NCBI GenBank assembly: GCA_965203975.1
Contig: CBDBDT010000001.1
Location: 564,466-628,465, forward strand
Direction of reading: 5' to 3'
Source of the DNA: Dehalococcoidia bacterium
Lineage (GTDB): Bacteria; Chloroflexota; Dehalococcoidia; Lucifugimonadales; UBA3495
Length of the DNA stretch: 64,000 nt
Shown here: one piece after another, positions 8,167 through 36,658 of the stretch
Layout of the letters: every line of letters begins with the position of its first letter
Numbering within the stretch: position 1 is the stretch's first letter
The notes under the pieces: generated by a model
Databases searched by the model: none
What the model was told of the DNA's origin: nothing
What the model saw: only the letters and a program-made list of their open reading frames with translations
Program-made: the position numbers and the translations under genes

Positions 8167-8221
8167 GGGTGTGTCTGCTGGGAGAGGCAGGTCGAATGCA
8201 CCCTCTTTCCGCGAAGGGTTC

Positions 8222-8412
8222 AGTTTCATGCCTGCGGGCAGGTCTCCTGGCTTCTGGCTATTTTCGAGCGGCCCCAGTCTTCCCAGTCGGTTGCGACCAG
8301 TGACCCGGGTTAATCCCGATGGGGTACTCTCGCCAGTTACAGTGGCGGGTCCGCGCCGGATTTTCACCGGCTTCCCTTTTCAGCCCCTTGACGGGGCCAC
8401 CTGCAGGACAAC
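8222..8412 (-). promoter_or_regulatory. cobalamin (AdoCbl) riboswitch aptamer
   Basis: Minus strand contains AAAAGGGAAGCCGGTGAAAATCCGGCGCGGACCCGCCACTGTAAC. It also has the B12 box AGCCAGGAGACCTGCC, the reverse complement of 8237-8252. Confidence 0.9.
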
Positions 8413-8447
8413 TTTGCTTTTTAAGGTGCCTCGGCTAACTCGGATCT

Positions 8448-16909: not shown

Positions 16910-17533
16910 CTAAGCCCCGGATAACTCGGCGAAAACCTCGTGCCAGACTTCCGGGCTGCCCTTGCCCATGCCGGCACGGTGGATGATGGTCCCGTGGCGG
17001 TTGATGGCAATCTTGGTGGACTGGATGGTGACGAAAAGGTCCTCGAGCAGCGGGCCTTCCGGGATAGCTACCGGCCAGGGGTAACCCCTCTTCTCGGCGA
17101 ATTCGACGAAGGGGTCTACGCTGTCGTGGGGGAAGACCCCCACAGCGTAGAAGTCCACGTCCTCAGCGTACTGGGGGTAAATGTCCTTGAGCCGCCGCAA
17201 CTCGGCGGTACAGACCCCTCAAGTTGTTGCCCAGAAGAAGAGGAAGGTTGGTCTACCGGAATCCATCAGTTGGGTCAGGGTCAGGGTCGTGTCATCGGCC
17301 AAGCGCAGAGTAAACTCCGGGGACTGCTGGCCCAACTCATAACCCTCCACCGGACCCTGGACCGGAAGGTCGTGGATCACGTCGACGGTGGCGCTGCCCT
17401 TGGGCGCGGATTCCGTGGCGCAGGCTGGCGCCAGTCCTACCACGAGGGCGACCAACAGTCTGGTCAACAAGGACGGAACAATCCCGAAGTGGTTCGGACT
17501 CATTGGCCGTAGTCCATGGAGACCGTTACCCAC
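16910..17533 (-). CDS. TlpA/ResA-like thioredoxin-fold thiol:disulfide oxidoreductase, predicted selenoprotein (TGA 17219-17221 read as Sec)
   Basis: Track ORFs 17219-17533 and 16910-17200 are in the same frame (624 nt). The joined product reads FLFFWATT-U-GVC-TAELRRLKDIY, so Sec replaces the first Cys of WCxxC. The N-terminus is signal or lipoprotein-like. The start is uncertain (GTG 17533 or ATG 17503). Confidence 0.7.
17192..17208 (-). promoter_or_regulatory. candidate bacterial SECIS hairpin
   Basis: CCGCCG-AGUUG-CGGCGG, beginning 10 nt after the UGA. Confidence 0.55.
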
Positions 17534-32779: not shown

Positions 32780-32821
32780 GGGGTGATTGCTCCGGTTATG
32801 CGGCGAGCAGGGGAGGGTGAT

Positions 32822-32848
32822 GGGTTCCTGCCTCCGCAGGAACGACGG
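32822..32848 (-). repeat. GC-hairpin REP-like repeat (family B)
   Basis: GGGTTCCTGCCTCCGCAGGAACGACG, identical to 40665-40690. Confidence 0.75.
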
Positions 32849-32933
32849 GGGGTGGCCTGGGCACTTGGCAATCTGCTGCTGGTGGCCGCTCCGGGTTGTG
32901 CCGGGGTTGGGTTGGGCCTATACTGGCGGCGTT

Positions 32934-33620
32934 ATGGAGGAATCGAGAGACATTCCCCGGGACGATTTGTCAGAATTGCCCCTGTTTCCCCTGAACGACG
33001 TGGTGTTGTTTCCGGGGATGCGGCTGCCGCTGCACATTTTCGAGGAGCGGTACAAGGAGATGATCGGCCGCTGCTCGGAGGAGGAGATTCCCTTCGGGGT
33101 GCTGCTCATCAAGGAGGGGCAGGAAGTGGGGGATCCGGCCGAACCGGTTTCCATCGGGACCACGGCGCGGATCGAGCAGGTTGTGGAACTTTCGGAAGGG
33201 CGGCTGAACATAGTCACGCGGGCGGAACGACGCTTCCGGGTGGTGGAGATTATCCAGCAGCTGCCCTACCTGGTGGGGCTGGTGCAGTACCTGGAGGACG
33301 AGCCGGGGGACATCACGGAGGTCCTGGTGGAGCAAATCAGGAAGGAGTTCGTTGATTTCCTGACTCTCCAGGCGACCATCGCCGGGGGGTGGAACAGCAA
33401 CGTCAACGTGACGGAGGAGCCGGCGCAGCTTTTCAACGACGTGATGACCAGCGTGTCAGCCAGCGTGAGCCTTCCGAAGGAATTGCGGCAGCGGATGCTG
33501 GAGTCGACGGACACCCAGCAGAGGCTGGAGACGCTGCTGCCGGTGCTGAGCCGGTGCGTTCAGCTGATGCAGGAGCAGGCGGACAAGAACAATCCCTTCC
33601 GGGGGGCGCGGTTGAACTAG
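32934..33620 (+). CDS. LON N-terminal (substrate-binding) domain protein
   Basis: ATG at 32934. LPLFPLNDVVLFPGMRLPLHIFEERYKEMI motif. The upstream part of the track ORF lies in repeat DNA. Confidence 0.75.
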   Translation: MEESRDIPRDDLSELPLFPLNDVVLFPGMRLPLHIFEERYKEMIGRCSEEEIPFGVLLIKEGQEVGDPAEPVSIGTTARIEQVVELSEGRLNIVTRAERRFRVVEIIQQLPYLVGLVQYLEDEPGDITEVLVEQIRKEFVDFLTLQATIAGGWNSNVNVTEEPAQLFNDVMTSVSASVSLPKELRQRMLESTDTQQRLETLLPVLSRCVQLMQEQADKNNPFRGARLN

Positions 33621-33774: not shown

Positions 33775-34710
33775 TCAGGCGGCGGGGTTGGTGTACACGC
33801 GGAGGGCGCCGGCTTCGGGGATCATGCCTGAGAAGAGCTCGGGGTGGAGCATTTCGGCGATGATTTCCAATCCGTCCACGAGCCGAGGGCCGGAACGGCT
33901 GGTGTAGGCGCTGGCGTCGATGGCGTAGACCCGGTTGTTCTGCACGGCGGGCATGGACTCCCAACCCTCCTTACTGGAGAGGATGGGGACGTCCTCCAGC
34001 GCGCGTTTCACCTCGAAGCCGCAGGGCATGAAGATGATGACCTCGGGACGGCTGGCGACGACGTCCTCCCAGTCAATCTGGAAGGAGCCGGTCTCCTTGT
34101 CTCCGAAGCAGTTTTCTCCGCCCGCCATTTCGACCATCTCCGGGACCCAGTGCCCCCCGCACATGAGGGGGTCAACCCATTCCAGGTGGAGGGTGCGAGG
34201 GTGGGTGTCGGCCAGGGCGGAGCGGGCGGCGACGGCGTCGATGCGGGACTGCATCCGGGAGACGACTTCCTCGGCCTTCTGGTCCTGACCGGTCGCCTGT
34301 CCGACACGGCGAATGTCGTCGAGGATGTCGCCCACGTACTGGGGGTCGAGGGACATGACCTCGGGCTGCTGGTCGAGGATGGCGGTGGTCTCGGCGACCT
34401 GCCGAGAGGAGACGGCTCAAACCTCGCAGATGGCCTGGGTGAGGATGAGGTCGGGGTTGGCTTCCTTGAGGATGTCCTCGTCAATCTGGTAGATGCCGAG
34501 GCCCTGCTCCAGCCTTTCGGAGATGACCCGGCTGATTTCGCCGCTGGTGGGCTGGGGGTCCATGCCCTCGAAGACGCTGCGTACGACCCAGGGTTTCTCC
34601 TTGGCGGCGGCGGGGAAGTCGCATTCGTGGGTGACACCGTGGAGCTGGTCCTCGATGCCGAGGGCGTAGACGATCTCGGTGGCGCTGGGTAGGAATGAAC
34701 AAACGCGCAT
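33775..34710 (-). CDS. BtuF/TroA-like (Peripla_BP_2 fold) binding protein without a signal peptide, predicted selenoprotein (TGA 34417-34419 read as Sec)
   Basis: Track ORFs 34417-34854 and 33775-34356 share a frame. ATG at 34708-34710 lies 6 nt after GGGAGG. The joined product reads MRVCSFLPSATEIVYALGIEDQLHGVTHECDFP...LILTQAICEV-U-AVSSRQV...HLEWVDPLMCGGHWVPE, giving a C-x-x-U motif. Confidence 0.65.
34389..34407 (-). promoter_or_regulatory. candidate bacterial SECIS hairpin
   Basis: U-CUCGGC-AGGUC-GCCGAG-A. The stem starts 9-10 nt after the UGA. The GCAGGUC apex resembles the E. coli fdhF SECIS apex as remembered. Confidence 0.55.
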
Positions 34711-34819: not shown

Positions 34820-36658
34820 TTAGTCTTCGTCTGATTCCGGGCTGCGGGGGTCATCCAGGCCGAGGAAGGTGCGGCTGAAGGAACTCTCCAGGACGCCGTG
34901 GAGATGAAAGCCGATGAAACCGAGAGCGGCGGCGGCGGCGGCCATGAGAGCCAGGGCGATGGGCAAGGAAACGGTGCCCAGCGTGACCAGGCGGGACAAG
35001 AGGGGCAGCCCCCAGACCGCCGGCAGGAGGAGAAGGAACAACAGGAAGCTGTCCCGCAGAACCACGCGCATGTTGCGGGCCAAGGCGGTGTTGGGAGTCG
35101 ACGACCCGGGGGCGATGACTTCGGTTAACTCATCGGCCAGGGTCCGCAGTGAATGCCAGATGGCTACGGCCGAAGGGATGCAGAACCCCACCGCTCCGGC
35201 AGCGACGATCCATCCCCACAGGCTTTCCTGGAGGTGGGCCAGTTTATCCAACTGGCCGGTGAACTGGAGGATGCCGGTGCCGACGGCGATGATAAAGACT
35301 ATTATCACCAGATTGAGGGCGACGACCTGGACCGACCTCTGAATCCGGCGGGCGCGGAAGCTACTGAGGCGGAAGGCGCTGCGCAGGATGGTCAGGCCGA
35401 GATACAGGTATTCGGCGTATTCCTTCAGCAATCCAGGAGACCTGCGCTGGAACCAGTCGGCGGTGGCGCCAGCGCCGCGGAAGATCCAGGGATAGAACAG
35501 GGCGGTGATGGCGGTGCACATGGTAATGACCGGGTAGACGAAGGCGCCCACGGTGCCGTGAAGGGCGCCGACCCGGGTGATGGCCAGCGAGAATTCTCCC
35601 ATCTGGGTCATGCCCATCCCCACCGAGAGGGAGGTGCGGCCGTCGTACCCGGCCAGGAAACTGCCAAGGGTGTCGGCGATAATCTTGCCGACGACGAATA
35701 CGGCGCTGACGACCAGGGCCGGGATGATGAATTCCGGGAACAGCCGCAGGTCCAGCAACATTCCGATGGATACGAAGAAGAGGGCGGCGAACATATCCTT
35801 GACCGGGTTCATCACCCGGGCGATTGCCTCGTTGTGCTCGGTGTCGCCGAGGACGGTGCCAATGAGGAAGGCGCCGGCGGCGGCGGAAAGGCCAAGGAGC
35901 TGTCCGGCCAGGGCCAGGCCGAAGCAGAGGGCCAGGCTGGTGATCAGCAGGGCCTCGTCGGACTCGTAGCGGGCGACGAAGTGGACCAGGCGGGGAGCGA
36001 AGAGGGCGCCAAACACCAGGGAAGCGATGCCGAAGATAACGAGTTTACCCGCAAGAAGCAGGACCGAGCCGGCATCGGTGCCTCCGGTCTGGGCCGCGCC
36101 GGCCAGGACGGTGAGCAGGATCACCGCCGCGAAGTCTTCGACCACGAGAATGCCGACCATGAGGCGGCCCCGGGTGGTGAAGAGGCTGCCGGTGTCGCGG
36201 AGCATCTTGACGAGAATGGCGGAGCTGCTGATGCTCACCGCGGCTCCCAGAAACACGCTTTCGAGCAGGGACCATCCCAGGAGGTATCCGGTCTCGAAGC
36301 CGATGGCGAACATGATGGTCATCTCGACGAAGGCGATGACCATTACCCGGGTGCCAACCTGCCGGATGCGCTGCCAACCCAGTTCGAGGCCGATGCCGAA
36401 GAGGAGCAGCACCAGGCCCAGGTCGGCCAGCAGGCGAATCACGTCCAGGTCGCGGACCAGGGGCGTGGGGAGGGTGAAGGGGCCGATGATGACCCCGGCC
36501 ACCAGGTATCCGAGGACCGGAGGCTGCTTGACGAGGCGAAAGAGGATTAGCGCCGCGCCGGCTACGGCGAGCGTAATGGCAAAGTCGCGGACCAGGGCGA
36601 ACTCGTCGCCGGCCCCGATGAGCGGCAGGGCAAGGATGACAGGGTCGATCTTGGACAC
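34820..36658 (-). CDS. cation:proton antiporter (CPA2/Kef-type Na+/H+ exchanger family) with an extra C-terminal membrane domain
   Basis: QPPVLGYLVAGVIIGP and LLFGIGLE motifs; many hydrophobic segments. Confidence 0.85.
   Translation of the reverse strand: MSKIDPVILALPLIGAGDEFALVRDFAITLAVAGAALILFRLVKQPPVLGYLVAGVIIGPFTLPTPLVRDLDVIRLLADLGLVLLLFGIGLELGWQRIRQVGTRVMVIAFVEMTIMFAIGFETGYLLGWSLLESVFLGAAVSISSSAILVKMLRDTGSLFTTRGRLMVGILVVEDFAAVILLTVLAGAAQTGGTDAGSVLLLAGKLVIFGIASLVFGALFAPRLVHFVARYESDEALLITSLALCFGLALAGQLLGLSAAAGAFLIGTVLGDTEHNEAIARVMNPVKDMFAALFFVSIGMLLDLRLFPEFIIPALVVSAVFVVGKIIADTLGSFLAGYDGRTSLSVGMGMTQMGEFSLAITRVGALHGTVGAFVYPVITMCTAITALFYPWIFRGAGATADWFQRRSPGLLKEYAEYLYLGLTILRSAFRLSSFRARRIQRSVQVVALNLVIIVFIIAVGTGILQFTGQLDKLAHLQESLWGWIVAAGAVGFCIPSAVAIWHSLRTLADELTEVIAPGSSTPNTALARNMRVVLRDSFLLFLLLLPAVWGLPLLSRLVTLGTVSLPIALALMAAAAAALGFIGFHLHGVLESSFSRTFLGLDDPRSPESDED

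Follow-up and report, generated by a model that had tools for sequence, protein, structure and literature searches.

Two hairpins behind in-frame UGA codons in a Dehalococcoidia genome are very probably bacterial SECIS elements

The stretch of DNA analysed here (the window) comprises 64,000 nucleotides from a Dehalococcoidia bacterium (Chloroflexota; Dehalococcoidia; Lucifugimonadales; UBA3495), positions 564,466 to 628,465 of the forward strand of contig CBDBDT010000001.1 in assembly GCA_965203975.1. Two genes on its minus strand are each interrupted by a TGA codon, and immediately past each TGA the transcript can fold into a short, GC-rich hairpin. We argue that both hairpins are very probably selenocysteine insertion sequence (SECIS) elements, at which the preceding UGA would be read as selenocysteine (Sec) rather than as a stop. 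In window coordinates, the features concerned are the following.

33775..34710, minus strand: coding sequence (CDS) of a predicted BtuF-like (Peripla_BP_2) selenoprotein, gene 1; likely start at MRVCSF, own TGA stop at 33777-33775
34417..34419, minus strand: in-frame UGA (predicted Sec codon) of gene 1, motif C-E-V-U; codon 146 of the long frame, residue 98 from the likely start M49
34389..34407, minus strand: putative SECIS minihelix of gene 1; 5' arm UCUCGGC 34407-34401, loop AGGUC 34400-34396, 3' arm GCCGAGA 34395-34389
16910..17533, minus strand: CDS of a predicted TlpA/ResA-like thioredoxin-fold selenoprotein, gene 2; GTG start as listed, TAG stop at 16912-16910
17219..17221, minus strand: in-frame UGA (predicted Sec codon) of gene 2, codon 105, motif W-A-T-T-U-G-V-C
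17192..17208, minus strand: putative SECIS minihelix of gene 2; 5' arm CCGCCG 17208-17203, loop AGUUG 17202-17198, 3' arm CGGCGG 17197-17192

With minus-strand numbering in which the U of UGA is nt 1, the gene 1 site reads UGAGCCGUCUCC-U-CUCGGC-AGGUC-GCCGAG-A from the UGA onward, with nt 13-19 paired to nt 25-31 and a loop at nt 20-24. The gene 2 site reads UGAGGGGUCUGUA-CCGCCG-AGUUG-CGGCGG, with nt 14-19 paired to nt 25-30 and the loop again at nt 20-24. A fresh reading of the sequence thus places positions and pairing on the minus strand exactly where the original prediction, made from the letters of the window alone, had put them. The stems (7 bp in gene 1, 6 bp in gene 2) begin 9 and 10 nt past the UGA, respectively, both loops are 5 nt long, and in both cases 16 nt (nt 4-19) separate the UGA from the loop. 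Over 40 nt the minimum free energy (MFE) is -13.4 kcal/mol for gene 1 and -15.3 kcal/mol for gene 2; the bare hairpins have energies of -11.3 kcal/mol (z -3.6) and -10.4 kcal/mol (z -3.7). A lower helix in gene 1, pairing nt 4-9 with nt 33-38, is part of the MFE fold and is also seen in some close relatives, but only 59% of its cells are paired across 38 sequences, and we do not claim it.

Both TGAs are in frame, and each joins two open frames into one protein, with the coding signal and the family models running on across the TGA. In gene 1, the Pfam model PF01497 matches residues 56-315 across the Sec codon with 95.7 bits, alongside weaker BtuF-type matches in NCBIfam, and homologues begin at the residue aligned with M49, which sets the likely start. 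In gene 2, matches to AhpC-TSA and Redoxin (Pfam) and to ResA/DsbE (NCBIfam) extend across U105. The original prediction had suggested looking for Cys-containing homologues, and these turned up with Cys at the aligned position in both gene families. The column that reads C-E-V-U in gene 1 is C-E-V-C in more distant homologues, and the redox motif U-G-V-C of gene 2 is C-P-P-C in a Cys form (L089), which puts Sec at the first position of CxxC. Judged by these alignments, gene 1 is predicted to encode a BtuF-like CxxU selenoprotein of the BtuF/Peripla_BP_2 fold, with Sec second in the motif and CxxC in the Cys homologues, and gene 2 a UxxC thioredoxin-fold selenoprotein of the TlpA/ResA-like kind.

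The comparative data decide the case, as one sequence proves little. For gene 2, a homologue with one in-frame TGA was found in 28 of the 40 related genomes searched, at identities down to 28%, and the aligned codon is TGA at all 29 loci that were fetched (L060-L088, this genome included). In an ungapped alignment of 30 sequences, namely these 29 loci and a paralogue in this genome, loop positions G21, U22 and U23 are invariant and 91.7% of the stem cells are paired. The arms themselves vary widely (CCGCCG/CGGCGG, CCGCUG/CAGCGG, GCGCUG/CAGCGC, GCGUUG/CAACGC, ACGCCG/CGGCGU and UUUCUG/CAGGAA), with two-sided changes at 6/6 pairs in 33 cells. None of 500 shuffles reached any of these measures, and sliding the partners by 1-3 columns left 22-62% of cells paired. 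The encoded peptide varies along with the stem (T/R, A/V, R/Q); because it changes while the pairing persists, the constraint on gene 2 acts on the RNA. The one Cys form of gene 2 examined, L089 (WCPPC), is without such a hairpin. In one relative (G013), eight near-identical open frames of 114-121 residues, on several contigs and with one TGA each, match the C-terminal two thirds of the thioredoxin-like protein; they look like a multi-copy element or a repeated fragment.

For gene 1, 23 of the 24 other genomes in this genome's family have an orthologue with TGA at the aligned codon, the exception being a genome that is 90% complete and in 270 contigs. The TGA also occurs in two genomes of other families of the order and in a second paralogue clade, and three more distant homologues have Cys. 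Across 38 sequences, 94% of the stem cells are paired, and loop positions G21 and U23 are invariant in the alignment. We then compared TGA and Cys forms in three sets of sequences, counting a stem as kept when at least 5 of the 6 core pairs were retained.

Relatives: stem kept in 38/38 TGA forms and 0/7 Cys forms
Genome_contigs: stem kept in 33/35 TGA forms and 0/45 Cys forms
Metagenome contigs: stem kept in 23/25 TGA forms and 0/54 Cys forms

Together, the stem is kept in 94/98 TGA forms versus 0/106 Cys forms; the three sets may overlap, and hold 84 distinct TGA-form 42-mers in all. Two rows in which the aligned codon is neither TGA nor Cys were set aside (L043, poorly aligned, and L257, with Gly). 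Thus, the structure is retained in UGA orthologues of both families and lost in the Cys forms (for gene 2, the one examined). The original prediction had held that the same arrangement in two independent genes speaks against coincidence or sequencing error, and the conservation of TGA and stem across relatives of both families bears this out.

Codon choice in gene 1 points the same way. Among the 84 TGA-form 42-mers, third-position entropy within the stems is 0.69 bits at column 15, 0.09 at column 18, 0.31 at column 27 and 0.48 at column 30, versus 1.30-1.70 bits beyond the stems and 1.93 bits for the wobble nucleotide in the loop Val codon (column 24). Column 21, in the loop, is constrained by its Gln codon (CAG) and stands at 0.09 bits. 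The synonymous stem sites of gene 1 are thus frozen in these sequences. Among the metagenome Cys forms, L211 (C-E-V-C-A-I-S-S-R-Q-V-T-E) has nearly the same peptide in other codons and keeps 1/6 pairs, and L208, also with a near-same peptide, keeps 4/6.

Three further sequences belong beside gene 1. L276, on a metagenome contig, is a TGA form in a different binding-protein clade (N-Q-C-D-V-U-A-T-S-P); it is without the nt 14-30 hairpin, and by eye a possible 7-bp stem with the loop CGUGUU lies farther downstream. It may be an independent Cys-to-Sec change. L153 and L155 are Sec forms with the same hairpin in records titled as a Gammaproteobacteria metagenome-assembled genome (MAG) and Candidatus Entotheonella palauensis, which points to horizontal transfer or, in the MAG, to a binning error.

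The genome has what it needs to decode UGA as Sec. The hairpins would have lost their meaning had SelB or tRNA-Sec been lacking, but SelB (349.8 bits, model positions 2-580 of 581), SelA (561.6 bits), SelD (391.4 bits) and a tRNA-Sec with anticodon UCA (C1:942650-942746 by ARAGORN; best Rfam match to RF01852, 67.4 bits) were all found. SelD itself contains an in-frame TGA, within S-H-C-A-G-U-A-A-K. Elsewhere this genome uses TGA as a normal stop codon, with 314 of the 828 open frames of at least 500 codons ending in it.

The two hairpins had also been taken to imply other TGA-split open reading frames in this genome, and at least 25 in-frame TGAs turned out to be spanned by a family model. Codon usage by itself did not tell Sec sites apart from antisense frames or from junctions of genes in the same frame; 130 candidates were obtained once the frame had to score as the best of the six both before and after the TGA. 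From these, 35 were picked by eye, for Cys-rich motifs and in some cases for a hairpin, and searched with profiles against NCBIfam, 14 of them against Pfam as well. Of the 35, 21 were accepted as Sec sites, two were read as broken genes, one (NMT1-like, L123) fell in neither group and 11 were rejected or unsupported. The total of at least 25 adds to the 21 the two window genes, a second BtuF-like gene and SelD, and it is a lower bound because just 35 of the 130 candidates went to the family scans. TGAs are spanned in 12 genes of the UGSC family (NF041046 / PF24696), a second ResA-like gene, a thioredoxin-NHL protein (C-U-I-N-C), two glutaredoxin-like proteins, a DsbA-like protein, an OsmC-related selenoprotein (NF041052), a second OsmC-like protein, a rhodanese with the TGA at the catalytic Cys position, and a DUF3179 protein (L112, C2:2182698-2184350; PF11376, 263.9 bits; motif A-Y-U-T-L-C-G-T-G). 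The 12 UGSC paralogues (L090-L101, e.g. C2:45183-45749 and C1:792489-793037), four of which are fused to a long C-terminal region, have hairpins of 6-9 bp with the loop starting at nt 22-23; in the DUF3179 gene the loop is CGUGU, from nt 24.

The register seen in the window recurs at these sites: 20 of the 23 validated ones have a stem that begins at nt 13-17 and a loop that begins at nt 20-25 (the outliers are SelD, the thioredoxin-NHL protein and one glutaredoxin-like protein). To compare sites with background we used a descriptor scan in Python, in place of a covariance model: stems had to have 6 bp or more and no more than one G-U pair, and loops had to measure 3-7 nt and start at nt 17-27. 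It is passed by 19 of the 23 family-validated Sec sites versus 5.75% of 103,877 TGAs (binomial 2e-20); paralogues among the 23 are not independent, and counted by family the result is 7/9 (7e-8). Within the list of 130 candidates, 18 of the 21 validated sites have the hairpin versus 8 of the 109 others. The two sites added later (DUF3179 and the second OsmC) both have a hairpin, although one of them was chosen for it.

The 11 candidates rejected or left unsupported had a gene junction, a TGA beyond the matched domain or no family match. Examples are the end of a thiamine pyrophosphate enzyme followed by an antitoxin-like gene, a metallo-beta-lactamase hydrolase followed by a peptidase, an aspartate kinase, CD225 followed by DUF2752, PAC2, GIY-YIG, DUF5615, an IstB fragment and a leucine-rich repeat protein.

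Several results count against reading the hairpins as SECIS elements. Taken as single sequences, they are statistically unremarkable in this 62% G+C genome: against dinucleotide shuffles, the folding z of the 40-nt contexts is only -0.9 and -1.3. A scan of the whole window gave no match to an Rfam SECIS family at gathering score, and a second scan, which took 181 nt around each site and admitted E values up to 10, gave unrelated, chance-level matches and no SECIS family; both elements thus belong to no Rfam family. The descriptor geometry is common and not universal, since SelD, the thioredoxin-NHL protein, one glutaredoxin-like protein and one UGSC gene (4/23) do not have it. The gene 1 stem is nearly invariant, with two-sided changes at 4/7 pairs that amount to just 9 cells in a few divergent sequences, and SSRQVAE is still the peptide in the nearest Cys forms of the protein database, so that the conservation of this stem could be partly at the protein level. 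Finally, the related genomes are not independent, and the conservation counts overstate significance accordingly.

The original prediction had named one outcome that would speak against it, namely a pattern just as frequent after random TGAs, and for all TGAs pooled this is literally what we find. Of 103,905 TGAs, 139 (13.4 per 10,000) are followed by a contiguous stem of 6 bp or more whose 5-nt loop starts at nt 20, and for nine other triplets the rate is 11.2-18.3 per 10,000. If the loop must also start AG, 6 of the 103,905 TGAs qualify, and the other triplets have rates of 0-1.15 per 10,000. The pooled comparison is, however, not a good test: among some 104,000 TGA triplets, about 25 are Sec codons. 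We therefore dropped the exact-pattern comparison with the nine triplets as a test and do not count it as evidence against the element; the hairpins are not refuted by it, given how the validated sites and the TGAs at large differ under the looser descriptor. Four of the six exact AG-loop matches are in-frame TGAs, namely the two window sites and, for each gene, a paralogue at another place in the genome. Within the two CDSs there are 17 TGA triplets, and the hairpin follows only the two internal in-frame ones; none was found after the 14 out-of-frame TGAs or after the terminal TGA stop of gene 1.

The hairpins could arise simply because two conserved peptides (S-R-Q-V-A-E and A-E-L-R-R) are encoded by GC-rich codons; they would then have no function as RNA, and any Sec insertion would depend on something else. 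Much of what was just set out would fit: 6-bp hairpins are common at 62% G+C, suitably placed ones follow more than one TGA in twenty, the 40-nt z-scores are weak, and in gene 1 an almost invariant stem goes with a peptide that is conserved too, even in some database Cys forms. Yet this account would not explain why gene 2 keeps its pairing by double changes at all six pairs while its peptide changes, nor why the four-fold degenerate sites of gene 1 are frozen in the stems and freely variable elsewhere. Nor would it explain why the Cys form L211 encodes almost the same peptide with different codons and no hairpin, or why not one of the 106 Cys forms has kept the stem. We consider this explanation largely refuted and very improbable.

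It could also be that the UGAs are read through in some other way, by near-cognate Trp, Cys or Gly or by local reassignment, with the hairpins acting as general stimulators. Stop-codon read-through can indeed be stimulated by downstream structures in other systems, and selenium at both sites is a prediction from sequence. But the complete Sec machinery is present, homologues have the redox Cys of their CxxC motifs where the UGA stands, loop motif and spacing both fit a SelB-dependent model, and TGA is frequently a true stop in this genome, all of which leaves little room for such a reading. A plainer possibility is that both genes are broken, their TGAs having arisen by nonsense mutation or by an error of assembly. 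Such cases do seem to exist here: pnkp (L115, C1:497703-499505; TIGR04075, 960.8 bits) has an in-frame TGA inside its phosphatase domain, and an N6 DNA methylase (L114, C2:374440-376242; PF02384, with a weak MAD2 match) has one between the SAM-binding (S-adenosylmethionine) motif and the NPPY motif. Both look like broken genes, the methylase being probably a broken gene or an assembly error, and neither TGA is followed by a SECIS-like hairpin. For the two window genes, in contrast, the same TGA occupies the same codon in dozens of independent assemblies, and family models and coding signal continue past it. The conservation of the TGA across genomes refutes this explanation, to which we assign next to no probability.

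We are thus left with SECIS elements as the reading that these genomes favour. The observations behind it are the hairpins themselves, their conservation and covariation, their restriction to TGA forms and the four machinery genes, and on these we put the probability that both hairpins are working bacterial SECIS elements inside coding regions at roughly 0.93. SelB binding and actual Sec insertion would follow by analogy from the mechanism established in E. coli. There, the fdhF and fdnG SECIS are experimentally defined SelB-binding minihelices at a fixed short distance after the UGA, with an apical G and U recognised by SelB. The window hairpins share the short UGA distance and the loop G and U with these; they have no sequence similarity to them, and the UGA-containing lower helix is not conserved here. 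On this model, a ribosome would arrive at the in-frame UGA with the GC-rich minihelix 9-10 nt downstream still folded, and the apical loop, A-G-(G/U)-U-N, would be bound by the C-terminal domains of SelB. SelD would provide selenophosphate, from which SelA would make Sec-tRNA(Sec); SelB-GTP would carry this tRNA to the A site, so that the UGA would be read as Sec and not as a stop. The predicted products are a C-x-x-U BtuF-like binding protein and an exported U-x-x-C TlpA/ResA-like oxidoreductase.

The elements also agree with the published consensus. In Zhang and Gladyshev's bacterial SECIS model, for which we follow the summary in PMC13188914, the apical loop has 3-9 nt and lies 16-37 nt from the UGA, the stem has 4-16 bp, one of the first two loop nucleotides is a G, usually with G or U after it, and the MFE is at or below -7.5 kcal/mol. 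Both hairpins satisfy every constraint in that summary, including the position in the CDS directly past the UGA and the G in second place in the loop, with G or U after it; the sole difference we found is that both lie at the lower limit of the allowed spacing. The likeness to bacterial SECIS elements in the original prediction, an apical loop with G/U some 16-37 nt from the UGA, therefore holds, with loops AGGUC and AGUUG at 16 nt.

Both protein families are likewise on record. The family tables of PMC9312934 and PMC13188914 list a 'Cobalamin-binding protein BtuF' selenoprotein family (cd01144, CxxU), with which gene 1 shares fold and CxxU motif; we saw no difference from the tabulated entry. 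The source cited for that entry appears to be PMC5029168, whose main text contains neither 'BtuF' nor 'cobalamin', so that the source is not confirmed. UxxC thioredoxin-fold selenoproteins (Prx-like thiol:disulfide oxidoreductase, Redoxin family) are in the same tables, and gene 2 has the same AhpC-TSA/Redoxin/ResA-like domain with Sec for the first Cys of CxxC, with no difference relevant to the hairpin.

Around gene 1 lie a Na+/H+ exchanger gene (34820-36658, minus strand) and a gene for a LON substrate-binding-domain protein (32787-33620, plus strand), and there is no ABC permease or ATPase gene among its neighbours. Its homologues begin without an obvious signal peptide. Because of these two features, the BtuF-like protein may be something other than a classical subunit of a transporter. 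On the minus strand at window positions 8220-8419, about 26 kb from the BtuF-like gene, there is a cobalamin riboswitch (RF00174, 117 bits).

For Sec-decoding biology there is nothing new here: the type of element, both protein families and the richness of Dehalococcoidia in selenoproteins are already in print, and BSepDB (PMC13326102) lists two Dehalococcoidia genomes with 46 and 49 selenoproteins. The main use of the result is practical and lies in the repair of annotation. For example, public protein sets hold many entries of 199-220 residues annotated 'iron complex transport / cobalamin-binding' (P0030, P0036, P0092 and others) that start right past the Sec codon. These are C-terminal fragments of the gene 1 family, whose full selenoprotein has about 311 residues, and they arise because gene callers stop at the TGA. 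The typical hairpin register of this genome allows such TGA-split genes to be joined correctly.

A more specific idea, which we put forward tentatively and regard as rather doubtful, is that the SelB of this Dehalococcoidia lineage reads an unusually compact, fixed-register SECIS. The signal would be a GC minihelix of 6-7 bp with an A-G-K-U-N pentaloop at nt 20-24, and the demands of the RNA would have frozen the downstream codons and the peptide (S-R-Q-V-A-E; A-E-L-R/Q-R), which would be freed on Sec-to-Cys conversion, as L208 and L211 might illustrate. Neither G21 nor U23 varies in either of these unrelated gene families, and the published model allows no shorter spacing. If this idea is correct, the lineage would offer a minimal rule of its own for locating Sec genes, as well as a natural series for measuring how strongly an RNA signal constrains protein sequence.

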